Notes under the pieces: model-generated
Seen by the model: the letters and a program-made list of their open reading frames with translations, nothing else
Told to the model about the DNA's origin: nothing
The model's database searches: none
Position numbers and translations under genes: made by a program
Assembly (NCBI GenBank): GCA_030528355.1
Contig: JAUMZA010000001.1
Coordinates: 71,177 to 135,176 of the forward strand
Direction: 5' to 3'
Source of the DNA: Candidatus Saccharimonadota bacterium
GTDB taxonomy: Bacteria > Patescibacteriota > Saccharimonadia > Saccharimonadales > Saccharimonadaceae
Length of the DNA stretch: 64,000 nucleotides
Shown: piece by piece, positions 9,279 to 63,149 of the stretch
Position numbering within the stretch: the stretch's first letter is position 1
Layout: the number at the start of each line of letters is the position of its first letter

Positions 9279-10132
9279 AGTGTGTCTCCTGCGGGTAATC
9301 TACCATCAAGCGTACGGAGCTTTTGCAGTGCCGCCTTGGCTTGTTCATGATTTGGTGGCATGCCGTGCCATTTGTAATCATACTCCATAAAATCTACCCC
9401 CTTGCCAGGGACAGTGTGGGCAATAATCACACTTGGGCGATTGGTAATTGCCCGTGCCATACTAGCGGCAGTTATAATACTTTCAACCGCATGACCATCA
9501 ACCTCTTGCACATGCCAGCCAAAGCTTTCCCACTTGCCACGCAAATCTTCAAGCGGCATCACTTCTTCTGTACTACCATCTATCTGAATATTATTGCGAT
9601 CAATAATTGCTACCAGTTGACTTAACTTATATTTACCCGCAAACATCGCAGCTTCCCAAATATTACCTTCATTAAGCTCGCCATCCCCCATCGTGACATA
9701 CACAAAACGATGCGGATTCTTATCTAAGTATTGCAGCACGTACGCCATGCCCGCCGCCTGGCTTAGGCCTGAACCTAGCGGCCCGCTTGTAGTTTCGATA
9801 CCTGGCAGTGTAGTACGCTCTGGATGCCCCTGCAGACGACTACCCCGCCGACGCAACGTAGTTAACTCATCCACCGAGAAGTACCCAGCCTCCGCCAGCG
9901 TTGCGTATACCACCGGGGCAATATGGCCGTTGCTTACCACCATATAATCCCGCTCGTTCCATTCGGGATTTTGGGGATCGTGTCGCAAAATCGAAAAATA
10001 TAGTGCCGCAAATATATCACTCATGCCCAGTGCACCGGCACTATGCCCACTGCCCGCCGCTTCTAGCATAGTAATAATATGCTGGCGAATCACCGTGGCC
10101 TTAGTGGCAATCTGCGAAGGCGTCAGTTGCAT
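9275..10132 (-). CDS. Transketolase, N-terminal (TPP-binding) subunit
   Basis: 285 aa with GHSAGALGMSD and GDGELNEGNIWEA (TPP-binding) motifs. Confidence 0.9.
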   Translation of the reverse strand: MQLTPSQIATKATVIRQHIITMLEAAGSGHSAGALGMSDIFAALYFSILRHDPQNPEWNERDYMVVSNGHIAPVVYATLAEAGYFSVDELTTLRRRGSRLQGHPERTTLPGIETTSGPLGSGLSQAAGMAYVLQYLDKNPHRFVYVTMGDGELNEGNIWEAAMFAGKYKLSQLVAIIDRNNIQIDGSTEEVMPLEDLRGKWESFGWHVQEVDGHAVESIITAASMARAITNRPSVIIAHTVPGKGVDFMEYDYKWHGMPPNHEQAKAALQKLRTLDGRLPAGDTL

Positions 10133-31927: not shown

Positions 31928-32971
31928 TTAAAACTGCCCCAAAAAGTCCAATTTGCCACTTTCAAAGTGCCGCACGTCTTCGATGCCGTATTTCATCATC
32001 ACCAGGCGGTCGATGCCGCAGCCAAAGGCAAAGCCGGTGTATTCTGCCGGGTCGATATCAGCGGCACGCAGCACGTTCGGGTGGATCATACCGCAACCAA
32101 GTAGCTCAATCCAGCCTTCACCCGAGCATACTTTGCAATCTGGGTTTTTACCTTCACAAAACGGACAGCTCAGGGCAAACTCAAAGCTTGGTTCGGTGAA
32201 TGGAAAGTAAAACGGATTGACTCGCACGTCCAATTTTTTGCCGTAGTATTCTTGCAAAAATTCTTGCAGGGTGGCGATGAGATTGCCCACATTGACGCCT
32301 TTGGCCACATAGACGCCTTCCACTTGATAAAACGTATGTTCGTGCCGCGCGTCTAAATCCTCGTTGCGAAACACGCGGTCTGGCACGATGGCGGCAATTG
32401 CCTCGCCCTTCGCCAAATTCGCCGCATATTTTTTCAGCACGCGGTTTTGCATAGTCGAGGTATGCGCCGGGGCGATCAAGCGGTCGCCCCGTGCGTCGGT
32501 TTCTTCTGTCATAAAGGTGTCATAATCATCACGCGCCGGGTGGCCTTTGGGGAAATTCAGACTCTCAAACATATGGAACTGGTCGTCCATTTCACGCGAT
32601 TCTTCCACCACATAGCCCATGCGATTAAAGATATCAGAAATCCGCTCGATTTCGCACATCAAGGGATGAATCGTACCTTGCTCACTCGGCAGCAACGCCG
32701 GCACCGACGCATTGACGTCCATTGGTGCGGTTACATCAATTGGCGGAATATCTGCAGCTTGCAAGGTAGCTTCTCGTGTTGCAATCTCCTGCTCGAGCGA
32801 TTGCTTTAATGCATTCACCGCCTGACCAAATACGGCACGCTCTTCGTTAGAAAGCGTTGGAATAACTGCATATAATTCACGAATTTCTTTTGCCTTGAGT
32901 ATCTCTCTTGGATTGTCGAGCGTCGCCACTCGATCAAGCAATATCTGTCGCACCGATTCTATACGTTCCAT
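31928..32971 (-). CDS. pheS: Phenylalanine--tRNA ligase alpha subunit
   Basis: 347 aa with class II aaRS motifs (FRNE, GFAFGCGIDRL). Confidence 0.95.
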   Translation of the reverse strand: MERIESVRQILLDRVATLDNPREILKAKEIRELYAVIPTLSNEERAVFGQAVNALKQSLEQEIATREATLQAADIPPIDVTAPMDVNASVPALLPSEQGTIHPLMCEIERISDIFNRMGYVVEESREMDDQFHMFESLNFPKGHPARDDYDTFMTEETDARGDRLIAPAHTSTMQNRVLKKYAANLAKGEAIAAIVPDRVFRNEDLDARHEHTFYQVEGVYVAKGVNVGNLIATLQEFLQEYYGKKLDVRVNPFYFPFTEPSFEFALSCPFCEGKNPDCKVCSGEGWIELLGCGMIHPNVLRAADIDPAEYTGFAFGCGIDRLVMMKYGIEDVRHFESGKLDFLGQF

Positions 32972-32981
32972 TTTTTCTCCT

Positions 32982-33221
32982 TTAGCTTGAGCGTACTATT
33001 AGCCACACAATTACCCCAACGCTAACCACGCCGAGCACCAACCACACACCGAGCAAGCCCGATGACGACTTTGTGTTGTCCATATAATTAGATTGTTCTA
33101 CCATGTCAGTCGTTAGCTCTACCTCACCCCCGGTTTCGGGTGCATTTTTTGCTCGCAAATCAGCCGCAATTCGCTCTTGCAGCTTACTACGTTGTTCATC
33201 ACGTCGTACATATAATCCCAT
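32982..33221 (-). CDS. Small membrane protein (79 aa, C-terminal TM), immediately upstream of pheS
   Basis: Charged N-terminus plus the TM helix LLGVWLVLGVVSVGVIVWLIV, 10 nt upstream of the pheS start. Confidence 0.45.
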   Translation of the reverse strand: MGLYVRRDEQRSKLQERIAADLRAKNAPETGGEVELTTDMVEQSNYMDNTKSSSGLLGVWLVLGVVSVGVIVWLIVRSS

Positions 33222-33291
33222 ATCTCTAGTATACCACCTTTACTATATGCTATACTAAATGCATATTTCATTATATAAAGGAGGGAAATAT

Positions 33292-34176
33292 ATGGCGACC
33301 AAAAAAGCCACTTCGACGAAGAAGTCAAAAACGACAACCTCGAAGAAGCCAACTACTAAAAAAGTAGAAACAATCGTAACTACCGAAGTCAAGCCAGTGA
33401 AAAAACTTGCCAGCACCAAGCCTAAAAAGGCCGCTCTTTTCCAAAGTCGCTCAGCACTACTCGGTGCATCGATTGGTGAATTTATCGGCACCTTTATGCT
33501 TGTTGCGGTTGCACTTGCTACCCAGGCAAATCCACTCATTGTCAGCTTTGCACTTGTTGCTATTGTGCTTACCATTGGCACACTATCCGGTGCACACGTT
33601 AACCCACTAATCACCGTTGGTGCATGGGCAACTCGTAAAATTAGCCACCTTCGTGCTGGTGCATATCTGCTTGCACAAACACTCGGCGGTATGCTCGCAC
33701 TCGTTGTTATGAGCCGCTTTGCTGAACTAACAGCCGCCGCACAAGATGCCGCAGCTTCAAGCCACGCACTTGGCCTAAATGTACCACAGCTATTTAAGGT
33801 GCAGGCTATCAGCCCTGATACACCTAATATTTGGTATATCGTTTTTGCCGAATTGCTTGCAACTATCATCTTTGGTTTTGTAGTAGCAAGTGCCATGCGT
33901 GAAACCCGTGACCGAACCGCACAGGCCTTTACTATCGGCTTTGGCCTGCTGGTTGCACTGACTATTGCCGGCGGCGCAGCAGTATTTGCTGGCGGTGCAG
34001 TGTTGGCCAACCCAGCTGTTGCCCTTGGTGTACAAGCTATTGACTGGACCAACCTTAGCAACTTCTGGCCAATGCTTACCTATATCGCTATGCCACTATT
34101 CGGCGGTGTGGTTGGCTTCTTCTTGTACGACGTGCTTCGCACTGAGCGCGATGAAGACACTACCTTACAAAAGTAG
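33292..34176 (+). CDS. MIP/aquaporin-family channel with a ~50 aa lysine-rich N-terminal tail
   Basis: ATG at 33292 preceded by AAGGAGGG. The N-terminus reads MATKKATSTKKSKTTTSKKPTTKKVETIVTTEVKPVKKLASTKPKKAA. The first loop motif is GAHVNPLITVGAW (NPL in place of NPA) and the second is LANPAVALG. Confidence 0.85.
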   Translation: MATKKATSTKKSKTTTSKKPTTKKVETIVTTEVKPVKKLASTKPKKAALFQSRSALLGASIGEFIGTFMLVAVALATQANPLIVSFALVAIVLTIGTLSGAHVNPLITVGAWATRKISHLRAGAYLLAQTLGGMLALVVMSRFAELTAAAQDAAASSHALGLNVPQLFKVQAISPDTPNIWYIVFAELLATIIFGFVVASAMRETRDRTAQAFTIGFGLLVALTIAGGAAVFAGGAVLANPAVALGVQAIDWTNLSNFWPMLTYIAMPLFGGVVGFFLYDVLRTERDEDTTLQK

Positions 34177-34198
34177 TTTAGTACTATAAGAACCACAC

Positions 34199-34227
34199 AA
34201 AACCCCCACCTGCAGCGTGGGGGTTTT
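34199..34227. terminator. Bidirectional intrinsic terminator
   Basis: AAAACCCCCAC-CTGCAGC-GTGGGGGTTTT, between the convergent MIP channel gene and rmuC. Confidence 0.75.
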
Positions 34228-34250
34228 ATATAGTGGCGTGGCTGCATATT

Positions 34251-35321
34251 TTATTCGTCTTTTTGCGGACGATCGATCAACAAAGGCTCAACCGATGGCT
34301 CCTTACGAGCAATTTTCACCACGTCTTTATCAATCTTTTTCAGCTCTTTGTGGGCGTTGTTATAGTGATTAACTGTTGTCCCTAGACTATTCCCCAGCTT
34401 GTGCATCAACTGCTCGTACGCCGCAATATGACGGCCAAGCTGCCCAACCCGAGCCTGGATCTCTTTTGCCTGCGTTTCGATTTGCAGGCTTCGCAACCCC
34501 TGCAATACCGTTTGAAGATACGCCATAAAACTTGTTGGGCTTACAATAATCACCTTCTTTTCTTGAAAGGCATACTCCACTAAATCACGAGCACTCGCAC
34601 CTGTACCCACATCGCCAATTAATAAATCATAATATAGTGATTCGGACGGAATAAACATAAAGGCAAAATCCATCGTTTTTTCACCCGGACGAATATATTT
34701 GCTAGTTTCATCGATGCGGCCTTTTAGGTCTTGCCGAACCTTTGCAAGTAGCTGTGCTCGCTCAGCTTTTTGTTCTGTTGCGACCATACGGTTGTAGTTT
34801 TCAAGGCTAAATTTACTATCAACTGGCAACATTTTGCCACGCTCTAAAAAGATCACCGCATCGGCAATCACGCCATCCTTAAACTTATATTGCATTTGAA
34901 ATTGCTTGGGTGATAACACATTTTCGAGTACGCTCTGCAGGTAAAATTCACCAAACACACCCCGCTGTTTAGGGTTTTGCAACACATTCTGGAGTGTCTT
35001 CAAATCACCTGCCACGTCAATTACTCGTGCATTTGTTTCATCAAGCTTTGTCAGACGATTACTCACATCGGCAACCAATTTTGCACTTTGCGATAGCTGC
35101 TGCTGCATCGACAACTGCATTTGCTGCGTACCTTGCTCTAGCTTGTCGCCAACCCGTTCTTGCATGAGTTGCACCGCACGAGTTATCTCTACCAAATCGG
35201 CCTTGAGTAATTGTGCAGTATCAGATTTTTCGAGCTGCCTTAACCTTGTAAGTAATGTCATGGCAAATATAGCAAACCCAATTGCCATACAAAGCAGAAT
35301 AACCAATAGCATCATATCCAT
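34251..35321 (-). CDS. rmuC: DNA recombination protein RmuC
   Basis: 356 aa with an N-terminal TM helix, coiled-coil and a C-terminal RmuC nuclease-like domain. Confidence 0.8.
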   Translation of the reverse strand: MDMMLLVILLCMAIGFAIFAMTLLTRLRQLEKSDTAQLLKADLVEITRAVQLMQERVGDKLEQGTQQMQLSMQQQLSQSAKLVADVSNRLTKLDETNARVIDVAGDLKTLQNVLQNPKQRGVFGEFYLQSVLENVLSPKQFQMQYKFKDGVIADAVIFLERGKMLPVDSKFSLENYNRMVATEQKAERAQLLAKVRQDLKGRIDETSKYIRPGEKTMDFAFMFIPSESLYYDLLIGDVGTGASARDLVEYAFQEKKVIIVSPTSFMAYLQTVLQGLRSLQIETQAKEIQARVGQLGRHIAAYEQLMHKLGNSLGTTVNHYNNAHKELKKIDKDVVKIARKEPSVEPLLIDRPQKDE

Positions 35322-35348
35322 GCTTTTAGTATAGCAATCGTCTAAAAA

Positions 35349-35825
35349 CTACACAAATGCTGGTATGGCACGAGAAATAATCACAAGTACTGCAAAGATA
35401 AGCAACATTACTGGCACTTTGCGGATACGAACCACCCAGGCATATGCCACATAGGCAAGTGCGTACAGTATCGCCGTCCAGGTCACTGATGGCACAATCC
35501 CAGAGCCATACAGCCAGCTAGATAAGCCCCATAAACTAATTGCCGCACCAAGCGTAATAAGTACTGGGCGGTATACGCCTGATCGAACTAATGCAACCAC
35601 ACCAACCACTCCCATGACTACTGTAGCAATTTGCCCAGCATAATTTGCTGCTTCTACACACACTACACCATTGTTACACACCATATTTGCCAATACAAAA
35701 CGCTGCAAAGTATACGTAAGCATCCAGGCTACTACGCCCAATATTGCACCTACTAGTACAATACGAGCAAGCATGCTTTTATCTTGTTCGATAATTGGCG
35801 GCTGTGATTCGAATACATAGTCCAT
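35349..35825 (-). CDS. Hypothetical 4-TM membrane protein
   Basis: 158 aa with four hydrophobic helices. Confidence 0.5.
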   Translation of the reverse strand: MDYVFESQPPIIEQDKSMLARIVLVGAILGVVAWMLTYTLQRFVLANMVCNNGVVCVEAANYAGQIATVVMGVVGVVALVRSGVYRPVLITLGAAISLWGLSSWLYGSGIVPSVTWTAILYALAYVAYAWVVRIRKVPVMLLIFAVLVIISRAIPAFV

Positions 35826-35833
35826 ACTATGTA

Positions 35834-36319
35834 TTATTTTACACTACTTTTGTCTTTTTTGCAAGTATCATTCGTAAAATACCATAATGCACCCATGGCC
35901 GCCGCAAGTGTACCGCCAACTACATCAATCGGAGCATGCACCAAGGCAAGCACTCGCCCTACACATACTGCCAGTGCAATCACCACGCATACCACAGTAA
36001 GCCACCAGTGTTTTGTCATGTACCATACCGCCCACACCATTACCCATACAAAGAGTGCATGATCGGACGGGAAGCCTGGATTATTAAGATATGACGCCCC
36101 CGGATCAACATTCATAAGCTCAAACGGTCGCAGCTGTGTTGGCTGATAAATGACGCTCATAATCTTTGCCACCAAATAAGCGGTCAGCCCAGCTACCAGC
36201 ATGCGACTATAGACTGCAAACTTATGACGATTTGGCACACACCACACCGCAACTACCGCAGTTACAGCTGCAAGTACAAACACCAAACCGTCTGCCAAGA
36301 AAGAAATTATGATATCCAT
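35834..36319 (-). CDS. PAP2-family membrane phosphatase
   Basis: GFPSDHALF (PSGH motif) and RVLALVHAPIDVVGG (SRx5Hx3D motif). Confidence 0.7.
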   Translation of the reverse strand: MDIIISFLADGLVFVLAAVTAVVAVWCVPNRHKFAVYSRMLVAGLTAYLVAKIMSVIYQPTQLRPFELMNVDPGASYLNNPGFPSDHALFVWVMVWAVWYMTKHWWLTVVCVVIALAVCVGRVLALVHAPIDVVGGTLAAAMGALWYFTNDTCKKDKSSVK

Positions 36320-36336
36320 GTATTTAGTATACTACG

Positions 36337-37704
36337 TTATTTGCGTAAAATCACCACACCCACTATCAGCCATAGACATGAAATTGCTGCACATGCTGCA
36401 GTAAATACCGGCAGCCCAAATAGCATAATCATTGGCATAGAGAGAGCCGTCACCAAGCCACCTCCCATTAGTGGTTCAAATAGCAGTTGTTTATACCCGA
36501 AGCTTTCCGTTGCACCGGTTCGCTGTTTTGGATCGACAATATGGGCAAATAGCAGCCCGGTAGCCGTTGTGCCCATCGATTGTCCGATACTCACAATTGC
36601 ATTGGTAAACCAATACCGCTTAAACATATGTCGTGCTAGCACGGTAAAACAAAATAACACCCACAACACACCGCTGAGTGCCAAGATCAAAAATGCCAAG
36701 CCATCGGTTGATACAAATCCAAGCTTCATTGTACCGATTGCCGAGGTTACAAGCACCGCCAACACCGCACCACTCAATAATTCAACTAATGGCAGCGAAA
36801 TCACCAAACCAAGTTTCCGCCATATTAGCTGTGCAATCATGCCGCCAAACATACAAAACGTAAAGCGTGGCATGTAGCCAATAATCTTTACCTCGCCGCT
36901 TGCTCCCCATGTATGTAGCTCGAGCTGCAAAAGCAGCCAATGAATCAACCAGCCAATTAGCACGCTTATAATCAGCAATGCAATATGGCTCACAATTCGC
37001 CAAAACGCCAACTCCTTACGCAAGCTAAAGCCCGCTTTACGTAGCTGTGTAATAATTCGTCGATGATACACCATGCCTTGCACCTGTGCAAACGGACTAT
37101 GTGACTCAATCCATTTTCGCTTGCGGCCGTATGCAATCAACAAAAAGCCAACCGTAAGCGTTGCGAACAAGCTCGTGGTCGCCAGTGCCACCGCCATCTC
37201 TTGGCCGGATTGATAGTGAAACTCCTGAAATACCGGTACCATACCAGCCGCCGTGCCATGCCCACCTTCAAAGCTAATCTCTAGCAGAGCCGCCGCCAAA
37301 GGATGCGTCCCAAACACAGGCATCAGTACACACAAGACAACCAGGCCGCCAACTGCATAATACCCCCAGGCAATCATTTGCCCAAAGGCTGCCTGCGGTG
37401 CGGCCGCCTTCCATATTCCTCGCAGTGAAGTCAGCGGCTTTCCTAAAAATAATGCCCCAAAAATAACATTAATCAACAAGCCAGGCAGTGGCTCCCACGC
37501 CTTGTAGAGCGACTCGGCAATTGAGGAATCGGTTGGAAATCTCCCAAGTACCTGCGGACTGAGCAGTAATAAAATCAACCCTGCCGCAACACTGGCTGGC
37601 AAAAAACTGCGGCGAATACCTGGCAGCTGCACAAATAAATAGCCCACCGTTATCGCACCTATCAACACCAGCAGTGCCGAGGCGTATTCGTTTATCTGTT
37701 CCAT
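36337..37704 (-). CDS. Sodium/glutamate symporter GltS-family membrane transporter
   Basis: 455 aa polytopic protein. ISFEGGHGTAAG matches the GltS SGGHGT motif, and the C-terminal region is collinear with E. coli GltS. Confidence 0.55.
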   Translation of the reverse strand: MEQINEYASALLVLIGAITVGYLFVQLPGIRRSFLPASVAAGLILLLLSPQVLGRFPTDSSIAESLYKAWEPLPGLLINVIFGALFLGKPLTSLRGIWKAAAPQAAFGQMIAWGYYAVGGLVVLCVLMPVFGTHPLAAALLEISFEGGHGTAAGMVPVFQEFHYQSGQEMAVALATTSLFATLTVGFLLIAYGRKRKWIESHSPFAQVQGMVYHRRIITQLRKAGFSLRKELAFWRIVSHIALLIISVLIGWLIHWLLLQLELHTWGASGEVKIIGYMPRFTFCMFGGMIAQLIWRKLGLVISLPLVELLSGAVLAVLVTSAIGTMKLGFVSTDGLAFLILALSGVLWVLFCFTVLARHMFKRYWFTNAIVSIGQSMGTTATGLLFAHIVDPKQRTGATESFGYKQLLFEPLMGGGLVTALSMPMIMLFGLPVFTAACAAISCLWLIVGVVILRK

Positions 37705-37728
37705 CTGTTCTATTGTATCATGCTTATG

Positions 37729-38601
37729 CTACAATGCACGTGTACGTGCAGGCTTTTTTGCAGGCTGATGCACTGTTATCTGTGGAAACGGAATTTCTAT
37801 ACCAGCTGCATCAAATTCTTTTTTAAGACGGCGACGAAATTCACCAGCAATCGCCCACTGAGCAGCCGGCTTAACTTTACCCAGTGCTTTTATTCGCATG
37901 GCCGAGTCTTCAAATTCATCAAGTCGCAAGAAGGCAATGGGCTCAAAAATATCCTTCGCATACGCTTCATCTTGTGCCATAGTGGCACCAACCTGGTTGA
38001 TAATTTCTTCTACCCTATCAATATCTGCATCATACGATACGCCGACATTTACATTTACGTTGGCGTATTCGTAGCTCAAGTTGGTTACTGCCTGTGGTGT
38101 ACCATTACTAATAGTGTGTAAATTGCCATCTAAATCTCGCAGCTGCGTAATGCGGATTGTTAAACGCTCCACCGTGCCAGAAAGCGAAATGCCACCAATC
38201 TGCACACGGATAATATCACCAACTCGATATTGGTTTTCGCCAATAATACACAGCCCCGACACAAAATCCTTAATTGCACTTTGGGCACCAAAACCAAATA
38301 TTACACCAAATAAGCCAGCACCAGTGGCAAGGGTCGCCAAGTTTACGCCAAGCTGCTGCAATAATATCAAAATCACAATCACCCATAAAATAACCGCTGC
38401 TAGTGTCCGCAACACGTCTTTAAGGGTCTTTTCTCGCTTACGCTCATCATCTTCGCTCATGTAGCGATGCTGACGAACTGCCCGTTCGACGGCAATGCCA
38501 ATAATCGCACGTACTACTACGTGTGCAACCAGTGCAAATGTCATGGTGACAAGCAATTGCAATAATAGATTATCGGCGATTACCGTCGTGATTTCTTTCA
38601 T
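37729..38601 (-). CDS. mscS: Small-conductance mechanosensitive channel (MscS family)
   Basis: 290 aa with 3 TM helices followed by the MscS beta domain (GDIIRVQIGGISLSGTVERLTIRITQLRDLDGNLHTISN). Confidence 0.8.
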   Translation of the reverse strand: MKEITTVIADNLLLQLLVTMTFALVAHVVVRAIIGIAVERAVRQHRYMSEDDERKREKTLKDVLRTLAAVILWVIVILILLQQLGVNLATLATGAGLFGVIFGFGAQSAIKDFVSGLCIIGENQYRVGDIIRVQIGGISLSGTVERLTIRITQLRDLDGNLHTISNGTPQAVTNLSYEYANVNVNVGVSYDADIDRVEEIINQVGATMAQDEAYAKDIFEPIAFLRLDEFEDSAMRIKALGKVKPAAQWAIAGEFRRRLKKEFDAAGIEIPFPQITVHQPAKKPARTRAL

Positions 38602-38624
38602 AGACAGGCTACCAATATAGCAAA

Positions 38625-39056
38625 TTATTCACCAATGTGGTTTGTCTTGAAGCTAATATATGGCACATAAGTTTGCCACAGTGCAAGCTCTGTATTGCTC
38701 AACTTCATGGCCGCTTCTACCGCACCGGCAATCTTACTCTCTTCAAACTTTACCTTTTGCCCAACTTCTAGGACTGGCCAACCAGCTTGTTCTGAAAGTT
38801 TTGTTTCGATTGCAACAATGCGGGCATTGCCAATATTCTTTTTATGATTGATACCATAGGTTTGCACGGCTTTACGCACAAGTTGTGTATATGCATCACC
38901 TGGCTGTGCTACGTAACTATACATCTTTACATCTGGCTTTGCCTGATTCTGCTCCATTTTTTTGCCATCTTGGGCACTCGCCTGAGTGCTCATTGCGCAC
39001 ATCATTACCACCGCTACTGTCGCAATATACCCACCAATTACTCGGATACCTTTCAT
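38625..39056 (-). CDS. Secreted LysM-like domain protein
   Basis: Signal peptide MKGIRVIGGYIATVAVVMMCAMSTQASA followed by YSYVAQPGDAYTQLVRKA, which is LysM-like. Confidence 0.55.
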   Translation of the reverse strand: MKGIRVIGGYIATVAVVMMCAMSTQASAQDGKKMEQNQAKPDVKMYSYVAQPGDAYTQLVRKAVQTYGINHKKNIGNARIVAIETKLSEQAGWPVLEVGQKVKFEESKIAGAVEAAMKLSNTELALWQTYVPYISFKTNHIGE

Positions 39057-39157
39057 ATTCCCTCCTTGTTATGTATCTGTAGTGCTATAATACCATGTTC
39101 CCGCCATGGCTGCAAAACTATTTTTACCCACCACCATAACACCGACCACAAACTTGA

Positions 39158-40165
39158 TTAGCGTACCTTTATACTGCCATCAACCTTCGTCAGTAGCGGA
39201 TCAAGGAAGAATTCAACAATGCGGCGTTTGCCGGTGGTAATTTCGGCTGATACACTCATTCCTGGCAGCAACGTAAGCTCTGCCTGCTTTGAACTGGTTG
39301 CATTTTTGAGCTTAATTTTTGCTTTGTATACCAGACCTTTCTTTTCATCATGAATTGCATCCGGGCTAATCGTCTCTACCTCGCCTTCTAGATAGCCGTA
39401 ACGCTGAAACGGATACGTTGCTAGCTTCACCACCACCCGCTGCCCCTGCCCTAGCACGGCACTTTCTGCAGCGGCAATACGTTGCTCAAGCGACCCAAGT
39501 TCATTTTGTAAGCCAATCCTTTCAACGGGATTTGCTTGAGCTAGCTGCGATTCAAGCTCACGTTTGCGTTGCTGCAGCTGCTGCATATTCGCTTCTAGCC
39601 GCTGCTTGGTGTGCTGATTAAATTGCACTTGTTGCTGTTGCTGCGAAATTGCTCCGTGTAGCGTCTGCTGTCGAGCCTGTATCAATCCCTGGCGTGCCTG
39701 AGCAAATTCACGCAATACCGACTTTACTTCCTCTGGCAGTTCTGCCTGCGTAACAATATCATCCGCAACACCACCCACCGCCAGTCGCCGCAAAATATCA
39801 CGCTCCACCCGTGCCACGGCCACGCCTTGCACTAGCGTCATAACCTCCTTTTCGGAGGTGGTTTTATCCAGCTCAATCAACACATCACCTTTCTTCACCT
39901 CCTGGCCTTCACGGGTGTTGATTTTTGTCACCACACCGCTAATGGCCGGCTGAATTATTTTTGTGCTGCCTTCGGTTGAAATCCTACCATTCGCCACTGC
40001 TACAATATCAATCTGCCCAACATACGACCACACGCCAGCCACTACCAACAGTATCGTCACGAGCCAAATCACCATTGCACCACGCGGGGCAGCAGGCGTT
40101 TAGATAATCTCCTCGGCGGCTGGCAAAAATTCATACTGCAACCTGTCTTTCTTTAGCCAGCTCAT
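39158..40165 (-). pseudogene. HlyD-family periplasmic adaptor interrupted by an in-frame TAA (40100..40102)
   Basis: The upstream segment [21 protein letters not shown] (HlyD cytoplasmic N-terminus, SD AGGAGGTGA) is followed by TAA, then TPAAPRGA, then the ORF-track segment 39158..40075 (TM helix, lipoyl/coiled-coil, beta-barrel). All three parts are in the same frame. The ATG overlaps the stop of the upstream ABC fragment by 4 nt. Confidence 0.7.
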
Positions 40166-40701
40166 ACCTCACCTCCTAGCTGCTGCTTGTGTAAATACGC
40201 ATACAGCCCGTTCTTTTTGAGCAGTACCTGCGGCGTGCCGTATTCCACCAACTGGCCACGATCAATCGCCATAATTTTATCGACTGATTTTAATGTCGAA
40301 AGCCGATGGGCAATAATAATCACGGTACGCCCAGCAGTAATATGTGTGAGATTTTGCTGAATGACATTTTCTGATTCATAATCCAGCGCCGACGTAGCTT
40401 CATCAAAAATGAGAATCTTTGGATCGTGTAGCAATGCCCTGGCAATGGCAATACGCTGCTTTTGCCCGCCGCTTAAACCTTCGCCTTTTTCGCCCACCAT
40501 CGTATCGTAACCTTCGGGTAGCTCAGAAATAAATTCATGTGCCCCAGCAATTTTCGCCACCCGCACGATGTCGTCCATACTACTACTTGGCACATGTACG
40601 GCGATATTATCCCGAATCGATGCATTAAACAAAAAGTTTTCTTGCAAGACCACGCCAATTTGCCGTCGCAGCCAGCTTGGATCGGTCGTCGCAATATCCA
40701 C
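40162..40701 (-). pseudogene. Truncated ABC exporter: C-terminal part of the NBD only (Walker A, TMD and any peptidase domain missing)
   Basis: 179 aa carrying the signature [16 protein letters not shown], Walker [13 protein letters not shown] and the H-loop IIIAHRLS, but no Walker A. The gene breaks off at about 40700, where an unrelated recombinase fragment begins on the other strand. Confidence 0.7.
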
Positions 40702-41319
40702 AGCTGGACATATTATCGATGTTCGCGTAAGAACAGGTTCATTAAATGCACCGAGCCGGCAATCCGCGAAAAAGATTTACTACCGCAGATTTCGGCGTTG
40801 CTTGGCGATTATCAGATCTCTGATGAAGCTTACGATTATATATCCAGTAGAATAACGCAAGACGAAAAAGCCGAAAATGTGGACAGTATGTCTATTGTGG
40901 CAAATTTGAAAAATAAAATTGACAGTCTGAACGGTAAACAAAAGATTTTGCTTGATAGCTACCTAGATCAAGACATTGACCGTCAAACTTTTCTAGCTAA
41001 AAAATCGGAGATTTTGAGCGAAAAGAAAAGTTTGGAGGAAAAATTGACGAACCTCACAGCTAACCATAATGCTTGGATCGAACCTATGCGAAAATGGCTA
41101 GAAATAGCAAAATCTATCTGTAATTTGCGTAAAATCGATGACTTTAGCGGGCAAAAAGTTGTTTTGCTTGAAATCTTTGGATCGAACCTCGCAATGCACA
41201 ACAAAACCCTCACCATTCTCAACCACCAAGACAAGTTTGGAGTTGGCTCAAAAACTGCTTTCCGGAAGGGGGCGGAAAGCAGTTTTTTGCCTTTGGCAAG
41301 AATTAAAAAATACAAATAG
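40693..41319 (+). pseudogene. C-terminal fragment of a large serine recombinase (zinc-ribbon remnant plus coiled-coil/DUF4368-like tail); catalytic domain absent
   Basis: [14 protein letters not shown], then ...[20 protein letters not shown]...NLKNKIDSLNGKQKILLDSYLDQDIDRQTFLAKKSEILSEKKSLEEKL. The ORF-track segment 40537..40692 is an antisense artefact over the ABC fragment. Confidence 0.5.
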
Positions 41320-41363
41320 AAAAGTCGCCATTTCAGGCGACGATTCTGAAAAAATCCTTATTA

Positions 41364-41438
41364 TGGCTGGGATGGAGGGATTCGAACCCCCGAATGGCGG
41401 GACCAGAACCCGCTGCCTTACCACTTGGCGACATCCCA
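41364..41438 (-). tRNA. tRNA-Gln (anticodon CUG)
   Basis: 75 nt cloverleaf TGGGATGTCGCCAAGTGGTAAGGCAGCGGGTTCTGGTCCCGCCATTCGGGGGTTCGAATCCCTCCATCCCAGCCA. It has a U1:A72 pair, G73 and an encoded CCA, and is collinear with E. coli tRNA-Gln. Confidence 0.85.
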
Positions 41439-41464
41439 TCACCTTTAATCACTATACCAAACTA

Positions 41465-41905
41465 CTACGTTTTCTTCAAGCGGTGTGACGAGCGATATAC
41501 CACCGCCATAATCAGCATAGTGATCACACACACCACTGCCACAGAAGTTGCGTGGTCTGTAAAGTACACGCCAAACATACCAGCCTTTGCCCCAGCACCC
41601 CACGCAGTTACTAACATCGCCAACCATCCAACCGGTAGCAGCATAGTGCATACACGAGCAGCCTTCTGCAAACCGCCACTGGTTTTAATTCGTAAAATAT
41701 ACGGTAGACTAAAAACAGCCATAGCATTTACCATCAGCAGTAATGGCAGCCACCATGCTATCTGCCTTACTTCAGGCAATTCGGCCAATTTATCTAACGA
41801 AAATAACTGGGCCAAAGTTACCACGACCACCCCTGCTGCACATAGGGTAGCTCTCCAGCCAATTGGCGGTTTGTAGCAACGCTTCATATCACTACTATGC
41901 CGCAT
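41465..41905 (-). CDS. Hypothetical 4-TM membrane protein
   Basis: 146 aa hydrophobic ORF immediately downstream of tRNA-Gln. Confidence 0.5.
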   Translation of the reverse strand: MRHSSDMKRCYKPPIGWRATLCAAGVVVVTLAQLFSLDKLAELPEVRQIAWWLPLLLMVNAMAVFSLPYILRIKTSGGLQKAARVCTMLLPVGWLAMLVTAWGAGAKAGMFGVYFTDHATSVAVVCVITMLIMAVVYRSSHRLKKT

Positions 41906-58182: not shown

Positions 58183-58724
58183 TATGACTTTAGCTCAGCC
58201 TTGACAATTCGTGGGTAATTTGCTATATTGTTAGTACGATTCGTGGACTGTAATTGCCCCGTTTCGGACGTATATCCACTGGCAGCACTCGCTGTATTTG
58301 GACGGCCAGATGACGAATCATTAAAGTAGGTAACCACATTTAGTGCGTTGCCTTTTTTAATTACCTCGATAATAGCACTACACCGCCCTAATCGCTACAC
58401 CTCCAAGCTACCTGCACTGCAAAATAAAAAGTACACCACCTTGTGATATACTTCAATGAATCAGATTATGGTGTTGATATACACCAAAGCTTGAACCTAT
58501 TTCGCAAATACACGAAATAAACGCTACGATACAAGCCAACCCCAATGCCTACGAACAAACTCACATACCCACCCCACCAAAAACCCTTAAAATTATCTTT
58601 TTGAAATCCACCCTGCTCTATTTCTCCTTAACTGAAGTGGCGGATTTTCCGACAGTTTACCCGACACAGGCGGCAGCACCGTTGAGTCTTAAATAGGGCG
58701 GTCATAGGTCAAGTAGAAAAGTGA

Positions 58725-58730
58725 TATAAT
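58725..58730 (+). promoter_or_regulatory. Extended -10 (TGaTATAAT) 8 nt upstream of the ATPase ATG
   Basis: TGATATAAT at 58722..58730 and ATG at 58739. Confidence 0.4.
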
Positions 58731-58738
58731 ACACATCG

Positions 58739-60177
58739 ATGTATATTTCACAAATAAAACTTCATAATTTCAAGGGATTTAACGACGATCGCACAATCAA
58801 TTTTGACACTGGTATAAATTTCCTTGTAGGTGACAATAACTGCGGTAAGTCGACGGTATTTGAAGCTATTGATTTTATACGAGCCAAAAAGACCAGAGAC
58901 GAAGTAATAACGAAAACAAAGCTTGAGAGTGATGATTTTGTCTCAGTAGAAATAGAGCTCAAGGGCGATGACCTCGAAAAGCTTGTCGGAACCGACGCCT
59001 TGAAAAAGTACAAGCCCTATCTTATTGACACTGACGGATCTAAAAGCCTACGAATCATGCGCTCTAGTGAAGAGTCAAAAATAGCACAGAACAAAAGAGA
59101 GAAAACGCTAGGAATTGGTAATGTTCGAATATTTAACAACGAATCAAGCCAGTTCGAAAATCCAACAGGAATAGACACCGCAATAAACGCTTTATTCGAC
59201 GCACAGTTTGTTTGGGCCGACACAAACTCTGGTGATGTAGCAGATTTTTCAAAAACTAAGATATGTGGAAAAATTATCAACACTATAATTAGTGATAAGA
59301 TTTCTGATAGTTGGAATAATTTCAAAAAGTCACACAAAGACACTTTTGATAAGATTGCCGACAACTTAAGACCCATAGAAGAACAGATAAAAAGTAAACT
59401 ATCAGATCAGTATGGAGATACTGAGGTGAAGTTTAACTTTACGTTGCCAGAGATTACTGACTTTCTAAAATCAGGTCATATAGATTTGTCGGATAACGGT
59501 ATTCAGACGACGAGTTCAGAAAAAGGAACTGGCATGCAAAGAGCATTGGCGTTGTCACTAATTCAAGTTTATGCAGATATAACTTCTAGTGGAAGAGGAG
59601 ATATATCGAAGCCGATTATGTTTTTATCGATGAGCCCGAAACATTCTTGCACCCACGGGCACAGAATAGGCTCCTTGATTCACTTAAAAAGATAGCTAGC
59701 CAGTCACAGGTTTTTATTGTTACCCACTCACCATATCTTTTGAAAAAATACAAGAAAGACACCCACTCGTTGAATGTATTCTCAAAAAATGGCCTGTTCA
59801 ATAAAGTCGAAGAGAGTGACGCATTTGATTTGTTTGGATCATCAAGCCCAACTTGGGGCGAAATAAACTACTATGCTTTTGGTGTTATTTCTGTTGAGTT
59901 TCACAATGAACTCTACGGCTTTGTACAGACTAAGGCTATTCTTGAAAATGAAAAGAACTACTTTGAAGATAGCTTCGAACAGTATTTAGTCGGCAAGGGA
60001 GTAGCACAAGATAAGGCGTATGTTCGACTGAAGAAAGATGGAACAACCCAAAATCAAACAAGAACGCTGCCTACTTTGATTAGAAATACGATACATCACC
60101 CAGAAAACACGAACAACGGTTTTACTGATGAAGATCTGAAAAGCTCCATTGAGTTGTTAATTCCTCTCGCAAAATAG
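58739..60177 (+). pseudogene. OLD/AAA_21-family ABC-type ATPase with short C-terminal Toprim-like tail (putative anti-phage nuclease), interrupted by a frameshift in a T5 run (59621..59625)
   Basis: Walker A GDNNCGKST, ABC-like signature SSEKGTGMQRALALS and Walker B IMF[F]IDEPE. Frame 1 reads KPIMFLSMSPKH... and stops; frame 3 reads ...YVFIDEPETFLHPRAQNRLLDSLKK...VFIVTHSPYLL (H-loop). Adding one T to the T5 run restores IMFFIDEPE. The C-terminal 130 aa carry a V-E-F...E segment and a D-E-D segment compatible with a minimal Toprim. Confidence 0.65.
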
Positions 60178-60202
60178 TTGTTTATTTTTGGAAAATAAAC
60201 AA
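60178..60202. terminator. AT-rich perfect palindrome between convergent ATPase and restriction-modification operon
   Basis: TTGTTTATTTT-TGG-AAAATAAACAA. Confidence 0.4.
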
Positions 60203-60943
60203 ATGTTCGTGCATTATTAGTAAGAAATTGCTTTCTTGCGATTTTTTAACCCAAAAACCAGTTGCTTTGCAATTAAACTGTCGTTTGATGATATCTTCTT
60301 TGAGACGGAAACCAGTTTTCATAAACCGATCCATAACTTTATATGCCATCGGCTGATACATTTTGTTACGGCGCGTGTCACCGATAAGAATTGCACAATA
60401 TTTACCTTTTTTGAGGACTCGATACAGCTCTTTTGCAACTTTTTCCATTTCGTCGGCAAACTTGTCAATATCATGAATATTAGACAGATCGTTATCAAGC
60501 GTGCCCTCGCTGTATTTGATAATATCTGCATAGGGCGGGTGTGTCAAAATAAAGTCTATACTTTCGTCATTTGCCTTACTTAAATCACGAGCGTCACGCT
60601 TTACGACTTTTTGCCAAGCGTCGTTTTCCACCTCAAAATCAAGAGAGCTTCTCGTTCGCTCTAGTGCCTTATCATTTACGTCAGAACAAATGATATGACG
60701 GTTAAGTATTTTTGCTTCAATTGCGGTTGTGCCTCCACCGATCATCGGGTCAAGCAAAATGTCACCCTCGTTTGAATATCGCAAAATTAAGTTACGAACA
60801 ACCTCTGGCGACCAATTGCCACGCCAGTCCGATTTATGCGTTGCCCAATTACCGCGCCTAGGAAAAGCCCATACAGTCGTACATTCTAACTCAAACTCAT
60901 CCGGGTGTAACTTGTTTGCTTTTGCCTTATTTTTAGCTACCAC
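60182..60943 (-). CDS. DNA methyltransferase, N6A/N4C family (PF01555-like; DpnA-like second methylase)
   Basis: 253 aa with motif I HKSDWRGNWSPEVVRNLILRYSNEGDILLDPMIGGGTT and motif IV ILTHPPYADII. It is the last gene of the three-gene operon and overlaps the endonuclease gene by 7 nt. Confidence 0.7.
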   Translation of the reverse strand: MVAKNKAKANKLHPDEFELECTTVWAFPRRGNWATHKSDWRGNWSPEVVRNLILRYSNEGDILLDPMIGGGTTAIEAKILNRHIICSDVNDKALERTRSSLDFEVENDAWQKVVKRDARDLSKANDESIDFILTHPPYADIIKYSEGTLDNDLSNIHDIDKFADEMEKVAKELYRVLKKGKYCAILIGDTRRNKMYQPMAYKVMDRFMKTGFRLKEDIIKRQFNCKATGFWVKKSQESNFLLIMHEHLFIFQK

Positions 60944-61794
60944 GATAACTCGCTTAGCACTCCGTCTTCAAGCATACTCAGATTAAACACATAGTCATTG
61001 TGGCTATACGTTTCTTCAAGCGGTCGTCTTGCCGTATACCAACCAAGCCCGTCAGTAACCCACACAAACTCAATGTTCTGTGCTTTTAGCTCATCGTAAA
61101 GATTGCGAAACTCACCACAAACAGCCTTTAATTTTGAGCCGCCGCCATTATAAAAGTTAGTTTCAAACAATTTAATCTTTCCACTCTGTGGATTGTACAC
61201 GGCAAAATCAAAACTCCGCTCTGATTTGTCCACCTTAATATCAAAGCCCCATTTTGATTTAATTTTACTAGGACGAGCCTGTGACATGCACTCAAAACCA
61301 TTCCGCCTACAGAACTCCCCTAGAAATAAACCAACGATTTCTTCCATCAAAGTGCCACCACGATTTTTGCGACCATTACTATCAAGTCCAACTTCGACAC
61401 CAATAACGTAATCTACGAGATTTTTTATACCATCTCTCTGGAATAATTTCGCAAGTCCCGACTTATCTATAAACTCAAAGTACTTATCGGCATCATTGTT
61501 TTTACCAGAAAAATCATAAAATTCCGATTCTTTTGATACCTTGTCGTAAATTTCTAGATTATTTTCTCGTACAGCAAGCAATGCAGGCAGCACCTTTACG
61601 ATGTCTGGGTTAGACTCGTAAAGCTTATGGAAATCTCCTCGTAAATCGTCTTTACCGAGTAGATAATTCAATTTATTTAGGGCTATCTCTAAATCGGCAC
61701 TATTGGCAAAGACTTTATTCCAATTTACGAAATAATCCCAAGTTTTGATTGAACTTTTGAATGTTGATACTAAATCGTTAAAATCTCTTTTCAT
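60937..61794 (-). CDS. Type II restriction endonuclease, DpnII/MboI-like (predicted GATC)
   Basis: 285 aa, sandwiched between a Dam-family and an N6_N4-family methylase, with size and order as in DpnII/MboI-type GATC systems. Family call rests on context plus remembered family resemblance, not on a search. Confidence 0.6.
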   Translation of the reverse strand: MKRDFNDLVSTFKSSIKTWDYFVNWNKVFANSADLEIALNKLNYLLGKDDLRGDFHKLYESNPDIVKVLPALLAVRENNLEIYDKVSKESEFYDFSGKNNDADKYFEFIDKSGLAKLFQRDGIKNLVDYVIGVEVGLDSNGRKNRGGTLMEEIVGLFLGEFCRRNGFECMSQARPSKIKSKWGFDIKVDKSERSFDFAVYNPQSGKIKLFETNFYNGGGSKLKAVCGEFRNLYDELKAQNIEFVWVTDGLGWYTARRPLEETYSHNDYVFNLSMLEDGVLSELSW

Positions 61795-61797
61795 AAC

Positions 61798-62757
61798 CTA
61801 ATAATTTGTTACCAATACTTCCGTTATTTTGCCTCGTCCAGTGCCTTTTGAATTTATGGCACGAGCAGCAGCTATTTTATTTATTATGATCCCATCAATC
61901 CCTGAGTATAACTCGTTAATAAACGGCGTGTCTGAATTAGAGAGCATAACAAAACACCCCTTTTCGTGCAGTTTTACAAATGCATCACGAAGTTCCGTTT
62001 GGTCTTTTTCTAAAAACCCTTCTGCCGTGTAAGAAGTGAACGACGACGTAGCGTTTATTGGGTAATAAGGCGGATCGAAGTATATAAAGTCACCACTTTG
62101 TGCGGCTTCTAAGACTTTTTTGTAATCCTGATGTGCAATTATCACGTCCTGCAAAGCACTTGATACTCGTCGCAGATTGTCTTCGTCACAGATAACAGGG
62201 TTGCTATATCGACCAAAAGGTACATTGAATTGGCCACTCTTATTTACTCGATAAAGGCCGTTGAAGCCTGTACGATTTAGGAATATGAATCGAGATGCGA
62301 TCTCTATGTCTGACAAATCCTCAACCTTTTTAGCACGAACTTTAAGGTAATATCCTTTGTCGTAAATATGTTTCTGTAATAACCCTATAAGCTCCTCAAC
62401 ATTATTTTTGATTACGTTATAGGTAATTACGAGCTCGTTGTTTAAGTCTGAAAGCTTAGCATTTTTCGGCAATAAATCAAAGAAGACAGCACCGCCGCCA
62501 ACAAAAGGCTCGTGGTAAGTATTTATCGTTGGATTGAATACCTCCGGTGGATACAGGCCAAGCTCACGGAACTGCTTAAGGAGTTGGCGCTTACCGCCGA
62601 CCCATTTTACAAATGGCCTAGGCTTTGCATTTATGAGTTTTTGCACATCTTCAAGAGTACCATCTTCTCCAACGGATTGGAAAAGTTGTTGTGCATAGAT
62701 AAAATTAACATTAAAAGCACTGGCGATATTTGCAGTAGTAAGACTACCTATAGACAT
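61798..62757 (-). CDS. Dam-family (D12 class) N6-adenine DNA methyltransferase (DpnM-like)
   Basis: PFVKWVGGKRQLLKQF (Dam motif I region), FIYFDPPYYPINATSSFTSYTAEGF (DPPY motif IV with the Dam-specific SxTAxFTxY), ATG at 62757 with GGAGGGG SD and an upstream TGcTATAAT extended -10. The ORF-track start at 62769 is TTG. Confidence 0.85.
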   Translation of the reverse strand: MSIGSLTTANIASAFNVNFIYAQQLFQSVGEDGTLEDVQKLINAKPRPFVKWVGGKRQLLKQFRELGLYPPEVFNPTINTYHEPFVGGGAVFFDLLPKNAKLSDLNNELVITYNVIKNNVEELIGLLQKHIYDKGYYLKVRAKKVEDLSDIEIASRFIFLNRTGFNGLYRVNKSGQFNVPFGRYSNPVICDEDNLRRVSSALQDVIIAHQDYKKVLEAAQSGDFIYFDPPYYPINATSSFTSYTAEGFLEKDQTELRDAFVKLHEKGCFVMLSNSDTPFINELYSGIDGIIINKIAAARAINSKGTGRGKITEVLVTNY

Positions 62758-63073
62758 AAACCCCTCCAATCCCTATATTCTCTATAAGGATTATAGCATA
62801 CTTTCAATGACCCAACTTCGTAAAGTTGAAAAACGGAGCCAAAATACCGAACCTCTTCGACTAAAAAGAAATTCGGCGGAAAAGTTAAAAATAAGGCAAA
62901 AGGTTTCTGACGGAACGAGCAGGTGCGTACACCCGAAGACACTGGAGCTGAACTGCACGACTCAGTTTTTACGCTCGCAATAGGTTCGAGCTTTGGTATA
63001 CATTGCCATCATTTCGAAACTAAAACAGAAATAGTCGCCTTACCTGGCGACCAAATCTCGGAAAATTTCATTT

Positions 63074-63149
63074 TGGTGCGGGTTAGGAGACTCTAACTCC
63101 TGGCCTCTTCCATGGCAAGGAAGCGCTCTAACAACTGAGCTAAACCCGC
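63074..63149 (-). tRNA. tRNA-Gly (anticodon GCC) with unusual U19-A56 tertiary pair and A73 discriminator
   Basis: GCGGGTTTAGCTCAGTTGTTAGAGCGCTTCCTTGCCATGGAAGAGGCCAGGAGTTAGAGTCTCCTAACCCGCACCA. All four stems are perfect; the T-loop is TTAGAGT and the D-loop AGTTGTTA. Confidence 0.75.

Follow-up and report, generated by a model that had tools for sequence, protein, structure and literature searches.

The genes analysed here have two well-described counterparts. One is the haemolysin system of Escherichia coli, a type I secretion system with an ABC exporter, HlyB, and a membrane-fusion protein, HlyD; the other is the group of large serine recombinases that includes the A118 integrase, Bxb1, phiC31 and TnpX of Tn4451. 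In the 64,000-nt stretch of DNA under study (the window, part of a metagenome-assembled genome), remains of both kinds of gene meet on opposite strands between positions 39158 and 41438, beside a tRNA-Gln gene. We consider it very probable that two dead neighbours, a secretion operon and a recombinase module, were fused here by a deletion between short repeats, as part of ordinary reductive decay.

The likeness to the haemolysin system lies in an ABC exporter whose intact homologue aligns with HlyB from end to end, followed by an hlyD with an overlapping start, with RTX proteins adjoining in relatives. The bacteriocin and peptide exporters of the PCAT1 and ComA/LagD types have the same ABC architecture and an HlyD-family partner, and Pfam labels the N-terminus of intact relatives of the window's exporter Peptidase_C39. 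Intact relatives of the recombinase share resolvase, recombinase, zinc-ribbon and coiled-coil domains with the large serine recombinases named above, and match the C-terminal domain of the A118 integrase (4kis) and the N-terminal domain of a conjugative-transposon recombinase (3g13); compared with these enzymes, the window retains the last third only. For debris at tRNA genes, the nearest concept is the tycheposon model of tRNA-seeded islands. Tycheposons of Prochlorococcus are small cargo elements at the 3′ side of specific tRNA genes, which are stacked and leave fragmented integrases; most of them carry tyrosine recombinases, and partial-tRNA direct repeats mark their ends (Hackl et al., bioRxiv 10.1101/2020.12.28.424599). 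The window resembles them in its streamlined genome and in debris at both tRNA-Gln and tRNA-Gly, whereas the Saccharibacteria family has a large serine recombinase, long inverted repeats and only rarely tRNA direct repeats.

The source genome belongs to Candidatus Saccharibacteria, the product of 40693..41319 being 99% identical to a protein of a metagenome-assembled genome at NCBI, and all loci related to that product are from Saccharibacteria; loci and contigs used for comparison are referred to by L numbers below. The features of the interval, with the evidence for each, are as follows.

39057..39157, unstranded, intergenic stretch where relatives hold a 475/506-aa gene convergent with hlyD (gene maps of L012 and L014-L016)
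39158..40165, minus strand, hlyD pseudogene, type I secretion membrane-fusion protein (translation, Pfam, identity to intact homologues)
39441..39449, minus strand, scar of a 333-nt (111-codon) in-frame deletion in hlyD (blastn, tblastn)
40100..40102, minus strand, nonsense codon TAA, codon 22 of hlyD (window compared with L012)
40162..40701, minus strand, remnant of an HlyB-type ABC exporter, residues ~596-774 of 774 (Pfam, identity to L012)
40691..40701, unstranded, deletion junction with the 11-nt microhomology GCAATATCCAC (alignment of the window with L012 and with L008, L018 and L004)
40693..41319, plus strand, 3′ third of a large serine recombinase gene, pseudogene (homologues, 91% nucleotide identity to L018)
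41197..41368, unstranded, surviving right-hand inverted-repeat arm (X arm) of the recombinase module (inverted match to L018)
41364..41438, minus strand, intact tRNA-Gln(CTG) (ARAGORN)

The damaged interval beside tRNA-Gln

Homology of the ABC gene to L012 stops at 40701, and homology of the recombinase to L004, L008 and L018 begins at 40691-40693. The 11-mer at which they meet reads as ABC sequence (antisense) and as recombinase sequence (sense): it is present at the matching place in the ABC gene of L012, read on the window plus strand, and occurs exactly in the recombinase gene of L008 and with one or two mismatches in those of L018 and L004. Given the opposite strands of the two genes, ABC minus and recombinase plus, the 11-mers had the same direction on a single DNA strand, so that the junction follows from a simple deletion between direct repeats. 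At the least, ~3.0 kb was lost: the ABC gene accounts for 1,785 nt and the recombinase module for 1,216 nt, to which anything that lay between has to be added. An initial annotation of this DNA had proposed a single deletion breakpoint that took the 5′ two-thirds of the ABC gene and most of an integrative element. The alignments bear the breakpoint out, with 77% of the ABC gene and 64% of the tRNA-linked recombinase module lost, in each case from the 5′ side. The element itself differs from a classical island in being a recombinase module of ~1.9 kb, bounded by inverted repeats and linked to cargo modules.

The ABC remnant consists of the last 179 of ~774 residues; the initial annotation had likewise seen only the distal half of the nucleotide-binding domain, with coding sequence that stops near 40700. 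Its match to ABC_tran is limited to profile positions 52-137 of 137, and of the motifs it has kept the signature, Walker B and the H-loop but not Walker A, leaving the nucleotide-binding domain incomplete. The C39-like and six-helix membrane domains are also gone; relatives carry them (PF03412 and PF00664) upstream of the position of 40701. Up to that position the remnant is 96.5% identical to L012 at the nucleotide level, and its stop overlaps the start of hlyD (ATGA). Intact relatives of the exporter are ~710-775 aa long, among them a form of 774 aa.

The type of exporter was judged on intact homologues, not on the window copy. The intact L014 protein aligns end to end with E. coli HlyB (7sgr) at E 8.8e-216 and 722 bits, compared with 352 bits for PCAT1. 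Active C39 peptidases carry a catalytic cysteine in a DCG motif, and the C39-like domain of HlyB is without that cysteine; the N-terminal domain of the L014 protein reads LDPGLYCF, with DPG in place of DCG. RTX-repeat proteins are encoded just upstream of the ABC gene in L098 and L099 and a few kb away in L014-L016, so that the neighbours are RTX proteins and not the small peptides of the PCAT1 and ComA/LagD exporters. Because the HlyB score is far above that of PCAT1, the catalytic cysteine is absent and RTX proteins are close by, we read the cassette from these sequences as an HlyB/HlyD RTX-type type I secretion system rather than a C39-peptidase bacteriocin exporter, and the earlier label of a peptide-export (C39) cassette has to be dropped. 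The locus differs from the E. coli haemolysin system in that Saccharibacteria have a conserved 475/506-aa gene after hlyD, no TolC-like partner was seen, and the window copy is non-functional. Saccharibacteria are without a Gram-negative outer membrane.

The hlyD frame runs on the minus strand from an ATG at 40165 to a stop at 39158 and holds 335 codons, compared with 446 in the intact gene. HlyD of 446 aa occurs in more than 100 Saccharibacteria homologue clusters; the window product is 96% identical in amino acids to one of them (P0072), and the secretion genes as a whole are 96.5-97.5% identical in nucleotides to L012, which holds an intact 446-aa HlyD. Membership of the HlyD family is supported by homology that includes the N-terminal cytoplasmic segment, a single membrane helix and a lipoyl-like domain (Biotin_lipoyl_2, E 1.1e-10; HlyD_3 matched in its distal part only, profile 39-106 of 106). 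Two lesions disable the gene. At codon 22 the window reads ATC TAA ACG where L012 reads ATC GAA ACG, a single G to T change that places an in-frame stop at 40102..40100, just after codon 21 as the initial annotation had it. That account overlooked both the absent 475/506-aa gene and the second lesion, an in-frame deletion. A 9-nt repeat, TGCCCCTGC, occurs twice in intact hlyD and once at the window scar; the blastn blocks to L012 (39174-39449 and 39441-40701) are collinear, overlap by these 9 nt and lie 333 nt apart in L012, where the overlap maps to both 2134 and 2459. Searching with intact HlyD by tblastn recovered only residues 1-239 and 352-446, so residues ~240-351 of the periplasmic domain are gone.

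Between hlyD and the next gene to its left, the window has 101 nt where relatives carry the 475/506-aa gene, of which tblastn with both proteins found no trace in the window. The 475/506-aa protein has no Pfam match and its gene is convergent to hlyD (L012 2760-4187, L014 11380-12900; the two are 40% identical); it may be an uncharacterised component of Saccharibacteria secretion loci or a factor related to the substrate. A 506-aa gene of L004 was considered as a homologue of this partner and showed no homology to it.

On the other side of the junction, the recombinase frame remains open for 208 codons to a stop at 41317-41319 and corresponds to residues 299-506 of the 549-aa reading frame of L018, that is, the second half of the zinc ribbon, the coiled coil and the C-terminal tail (87% amino-acid and 91% nucleotide identity; L018 9999-10746). 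The intact L018 recombinase adjoins tRNA-Gln in another species, and the A118 serine integrase (4kis) is among its matches. When the tail is searched by itself, Pfam gives a weak match (Zn_ribbon_recom, E 0.0018, 19 bits against a cut-off of 25.3), and the assignment comes, without ambiguity, from 71 homologues, several of which carry PF07508 and PF13408 and one also the resolvase domain PF00239. Homology to the coiled coil of full-length large serine recombinases is present. Homology to L018 begins at residue 299, and the resolvase catalytic domain PF00239 with its serine nucleophile is absent; PF07508 is absent too, and the zinc ribbon keeps its second cysteine pair only (YYRC...KC). The initial annotation had thus recognised the opposite-strand zinc-ribbon/coiled-coil tail without its catalytic domain. 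It had also suggested looking in relatives for intact forms, and these exist: HlyD of 446 aa, an ABC exporter of 774 aa and, at tRNA-Gln in L018, a recombinase of 549 aa. Both observations that it named as refuting its reading turned out the other way: the product of 40693..41319 is related to recombinases, and short versions of HlyD and of the ABC protein are limited to an identical strain.

The recombinase gene lies directly at the 3′ end of the tRNA, with a gap from its stop to tRNA-Gln of 44 nt, one fewer than first noted. A promoter scan placed a promoter-like site for tRNA-Gln at 41479..41451. The X arm matches L018 8783-8956 at 93% in inverted orientation and ends 5 nt inside the tRNA-Gln gene (TGGCT); its left-hand partner was sought, and no second copy was found in the window. 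A terminator scan placed two minus-strand hairpins, both with a T-run behind them, just downstream of tRNA-Gln, at 41250-41287 (a perfect 15-bp stem) and at 41324-41341, and the end of the arm folds with z = -4.6. We infer that the tRNA-proximal 170 nt were kept because they now supply terminators for tRNA-Gln, and the only functional parts expected in the interval are tRNA-Gln and these terminators. A direct repeat of the tRNA-Gln 3′ end, suggested earlier as a left boundary, was absent from the window, and neither a tRNA-end repeat nor a Y arm (the second type of inverted repeat, described below) was found as a further boundary across window 30-41 kb. Relatives L004, L008, L017 and L019 retain a boundary of 5-nt core plus Y arm; no empty tRNA-Gln site was recovered in a close relative.

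Genes around the interval are mostly on the minus strand. From left to right the order is PAP2, a 455-aa membrane protein, MscS, a 143-aa secreted protein, the damaged interval, tRNA-Gln(CTG), a 146-aa membrane protein, trmD, a KH protein, rpsP and rnc. The same flanks are found in L008-L011 (PAP2, 458 aa, MscS and 156 aa on one side of a recombinase remnant, tRNA-Gln, 150 aa and TrmD on the other), which are without the secretion genes. The 143-aa flank gene showed no homology to a 137-aa gene of L014.

History of the interval and competing readings

The interval between the MscS/143-aa block and tRNA-Gln would once have held a secretion operon and a mobile module. The RTX-type operon would have read leftwards, with an HlyB-like ABC gene, hlyD and a convergent 475-aa gene, possibly with an RTX substrate gene ahead of the ABC gene; the mobile module would have stood against the tRNA-Gln 3′ end, with a large serine recombinase of ~550 aa reading towards the tRNA. 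A single deletion between the direct copies of GCAATATCCAC in the two genes would then have taken out 3 kb or more. From the ABC gene, 1.8 kb would have gone, with the C39-like domain, the membrane domain and Walker A; from the recombinase module, the first 1.2 kb, with the left repeat arm, the promoter, the catalytic and the recombinase domain and the first half of the zinc ribbon; anything between the two genes would have been lost as well. A second deletion, between the 9-nt repeats, cut 111 codons from hlyD, and the G to T change turned codon 22 into a stop. The sequences show directly the homologies, breakpoints and microhomologies, and that intact versions exist elsewhere; we infer the ancestral gene order, as well as a mechanism of slippage or illegitimate recombination at short repeats.

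Sequence identities bear on the age of both pieces. Secretion genes at window 39174-40701 are 96.5-97.5% identical to L012 874-2734, whereas the flanking genes from PAP2 to the 143-aa gene (window 35814-39068, L012 4281-7597) are 69-73% identical; likewise, the tail and tRNA are 87-91% identical to L004, L008 and L018, with flanks at 68-76%. Because the identity of cassette and tail exceeds that of their flanks, both pieces are younger than the host lineages that carry them, and we take the recombinase, on the same comparisons, to have been acquired separately at the same tRNA in different lineages. Erosion at this site is recurrent. In L018 coordinates, recombinase copies at tRNA-Gln are truncated from the 5′ side at 9405 (L008), 9621 (L019), 9692 (L004 and L017) and 9999 (window), the copies in L008-L011 are also frameshifted, and all truncated copies retain the tRNA-proximal end.

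Several observations weigh against this account. No contig shows the ancestral order of ABC gene, recombinase and tRNA-Gln intact, and the former presence of the 475-aa gene in the window lineage is deduced from relatives only. The contrast in identity to L012 could also come from recombination or a chimeric contig, which makes L012 an imperfect stand-in for the ancestor. Furthermore, the open 208-codon frame of the tail and a ratio of nonsynonymous to synonymous substitution rates (dN/dS) below 1 leave formal room for some residual function. The contigs L012 and L013, which come from runs SRR26448212 and SRR26448210, end within the ABC gene; the closest full-length ABC genes have only 74-78% DNA identity, and the region upstream of the ABC gene was not recovered in any close relative.

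The alternative that survives best, though we think it unlikely, is that the secretion cassette was cargo of the tRNA-Gln element, the whole of 39.1-41.4 kb then being one eroded element. The high identity of the cassette to L012 relative to its flanks points to recent movement or recombination; the cassette sits between the chromosomal flank and tRNA-Gln; L008-L011 have the same flanks without it; and cargo at the matching position varies among other members of the recombinase family. Set against this, none of 80 recombinase loci has an HlyD homologue within 10 kb, and the only ABC match is a 70%-identical nucleotide-binding domain ~8 kb upstream in L032. The intact secretion loci L012-L016 are without the Y arm, the conserved boundary of cargo modules, and neither a Y arm nor a tRNA repeat lies to the left of the window hlyD. 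The high-identity tract also stops ~17 nt short of the 3′ end of hlyD; beyond this point the window has a different C-terminus, SIKVR against SLHVR, that is still typical of the family, and this switch looks, from the alignment, like a homologous-recombination patch in a resident gene. With no HlyD near recombinase loci and no Y arm either in L012-L016 or left of the window hlyD, we favour a cassette that was resident in the chromosome next to the element over one that the element carried.

In another species, a tRNA-Gln element that still has its left boundary was seen at L004 7107-10795, and also in L005 and L017, with core and Y arm at 7107. Its cargo is a DUF2268 gene, a 65-aa reading frame, a 272-aa YcaO-domain protein and a 168-aa reading frame, followed by a recombinase truncated at a different place from that of the window. 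The YcaO gene near the L004 tail raised the idea of a bacteriocin/RiPP (ribosomally synthesised and post-translationally modified peptide) island, which was rejected: it is cargo of the L004 element and has no link to the window ABC and HlyD genes.

That the recombinase tail was kept for a function of its own, whether as a truncated protein that binds DNA or forms a coiled coil or as a region with a regulatory role in RNA or DNA, is considerably less probable again. In its favour are the 208-codon open frame at 37-41% GC, a dN/dS of 0.33 against intact L018, the survival of recombinase tails at tRNA-Gln in at least four other species, and the strong hairpins into which the tRNA-proximal part folds. 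The dN/dS value rules out neutral evolution of the tail, which the closeness of amino-acid and nucleotide identity had suggested. It is, however, twice that of the intact pair L018/L021 (0.15), and the divergence is mostly older than the truncation; for hlyD the corresponding values are 0.24 and ~0.1. Both comparisons fit a recent relaxation of selection, most divergence predating the damage. The catalytic and recombinase domains and half of the zinc ribbon are missing, truncation points vary by species, L008-L011 (more than 24 contigs) are frameshifted within the tail, and at the window tRNA-Gly site only ~65 nt of arm are left. This arm remnant and the varied truncations indicate that retention is consistent only for the short end with the terminators and not for the coding tail.

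It is highly improbable that the junction is an assembly artefact joining unrelated regions at a shared short word. The source is metagenome-assembled and other contigs of the strain break at tRNA-Gln, which would suit such an error, but the 11-nt overlap is far below assembler word sizes, and both flanks of the interval are syntenic with L008-L011. Moreover, the Logan contig L097 (run SRR24915846) reproduces window 32216..41396 at 100% identity over 9,181 nt, spanning the junction. The junction is real. All Logan contigs of the window strain (L001-L003 and L097) have a break inside the tRNA-Gln 3′ end; within one run, L097 extends to 41396 and L002 begins at 41367, a 30-nt overlap (k minus 1), so that strain variation is ruled out as the cause in favour of an assembly-graph effect. 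The branch probably arises from tRNA or arm sequence common to co-occurring Saccharibacteria.

Finally, we give almost no credence to a working minimal system of short HlyD and ABC fragment in which the TAA is read through or recoded, even though an ATG at 40075 could restart translation just ahead of the membrane helix and NCBI annotates a 305-aa HlyD protein (P0073), since TAA is also the terminal stop of hlyD itself and the ordinary stop of neighbouring genes, the periplasmic domain is short of 111 codons, the partner ABC protein has neither membrane domain nor Walker A, and the short forms are confined to the identical strain.

The recombinase family in intact relatives

A scan of species genomes for relatives of the recombinase found 438, which sets their number at 438 species genomes at least, and 80 loci were kept for comparison. 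An open frame of at least 480 aa is present in 60 of these 80, and in 64 a tRNA gene on the opposite strand starts 0-260 nt after the tail, with thirteen amino-acid specificities represented. In 34 of the 80 loci, a perfect inverted repeat of 33-174 nt (mostly ~100-175) ends exactly 5 nt inside the tRNA, its outer 5 nt being the CCA end of the tRNA plus 2 nt (TGG plus 2 nt). The left partner arm is placed immediately before the start of the recombinase, with an outer span of 1,806-1,896 nt for the pair. Arms are identical within a locus and different between loci. The left X arm abuts, through a common 5-nt core, a Y arm belonging to a second perfect inverted repeat; Y arms are conserved among elements at different tRNAs and enclose 0.9-4.9 kb of cargo. 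Representative arms are listed below.

L018 8783-8956 and 10505-10678, X-arm pair
L021 8784-8948 and 10511-10675, X-arm pair
L018 7073-7231 and 8632-8790, Y-arm pair
L021 7562-7681 and 8669-8788, Y-arm pair
L018, L021, L023, L026, L029, L033, L035, L046, L052, L061 and L085, among the loci with a repeat-bounded recombinase

The recombinase module adjoins one to three further segments of this kind, and L033 and L024 have four such pairs in succession. The segments carry small cargo, often defence genes; among the cargo seen are a nuclease of Mrr-like type, a WYL regulator, a HEPN protein and the DpnII restriction-modification system of the window. The window in fact holds a second module, without recombinase, at its tRNA-Gly.

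58469-63078, second module without recombinase, with Y arms at 58469-58506 (plus strand) and 63011-62863 (minus strand) (Y-arm profile)
58739-59695 and 59647-60177, split AAA_15/AAA_21 ATPase
60182-60943, 60937-61794 and 61798-62769, DpnII-type restriction-modification genes

An X-arm end of ~65 nt (63012-63073) lies directly before tRNA-Gly(GCC) at 63074-63149, and the recombinase gene is wholly gone. Searches for the Y arm as a known RNA or tRNA-like end returned tRNAs only in Rfam, and parsing by hand gave no tRNA fold.

At least one module of this kind is found in both orientations. A 1,447-nt cargo of L035 (7236-8682) and L046 (7237-8683) is 99.2% identical over its full length to that of L041 (7232-8678) and is inverted relative to recombinase and tRNA, the tRNA also being different (Val compared with Leu). 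At the level of sequence, this is evidence for inversion or for two-way insertion of repeat-bounded modules. The cargo itself carries a ClbS-like 127-aa gene and a 311-aa protein that, by eye only, resembles a WYL/HTH-type regulator. In L031 (1224-2648) and L056 (1524-1736), whose contigs are short upstream, the recombinase 3′ end is followed directly by core and Y arm, a layout that could represent the junction of an excised circle or an inverted isomer of the recombinase module.

The sites of an element occur in the order flank-core-Y, Y′-core′-X′, X-core-tRNA, and can be read as candidate attL-like, inverted attP-like and attR-like sites. The two 5-nt cores of L023 share no dinucleotide in direct orientation, and we could not derive the layout as a whole from one standard serine-integrase integration. 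It suggests either a circle with two inverted attachment sites or shufflon-like invertible modules that would be driven by a serine integrase. The Salmonella Hin/H segment and the yeast 2-micron plasmid offer a resemblance only, in that intact relatives have the recombinase between inverted repeats and a neighbouring repeat-bounded segment in either orientation; the window, in which one arm is lost, has no such structure. Hin is a small invertase that acts on 26-bp sites, and the 2-micron plasmid uses a tyrosine recombinase. We know of no serine integrase whose gene is bounded by perfect inverted repeats ending inside a tRNA gene, and a search of the literature on Saccharibacteria and Patescibacteria for this architecture found no description. 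Tentatively, and without leaning towards it, we regard the window remnant as possible debris of an undescribed class of Patescibacteria mobile elements with repeat-bounded recombinase and cargo modules.

Implications for Saccharibacteria

The feature itself is routine erosion of known gene families; what makes it worth attention is the mechanism, resolved to the base, and an architecture in intact relatives that is so far unexplained. The window provides a base-resolved case of gene loss in the reduced genome of an epibiont, with both mapped deletions lying between direct repeats of 9 and 11 nt. A secretion system and a mobile element were disabled together, and the piece left by the tRNA is the transcript-terminating end. 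RTX-type type I secretion is variably present among oral Saccharibacteria, which bears on their interaction with host bacteria. The remnant also leads to a serine-integrase family that is very common and specific for the ends of tRNA genes in Saccharibacteria and in other Patescibacteria, with candidate attachment sites mapped to the base and an inverted-repeat architecture that the standard serine-integrase model does not explain. Such integrases could serve as integration tools for the hard-to-engineer Patescibacteria.

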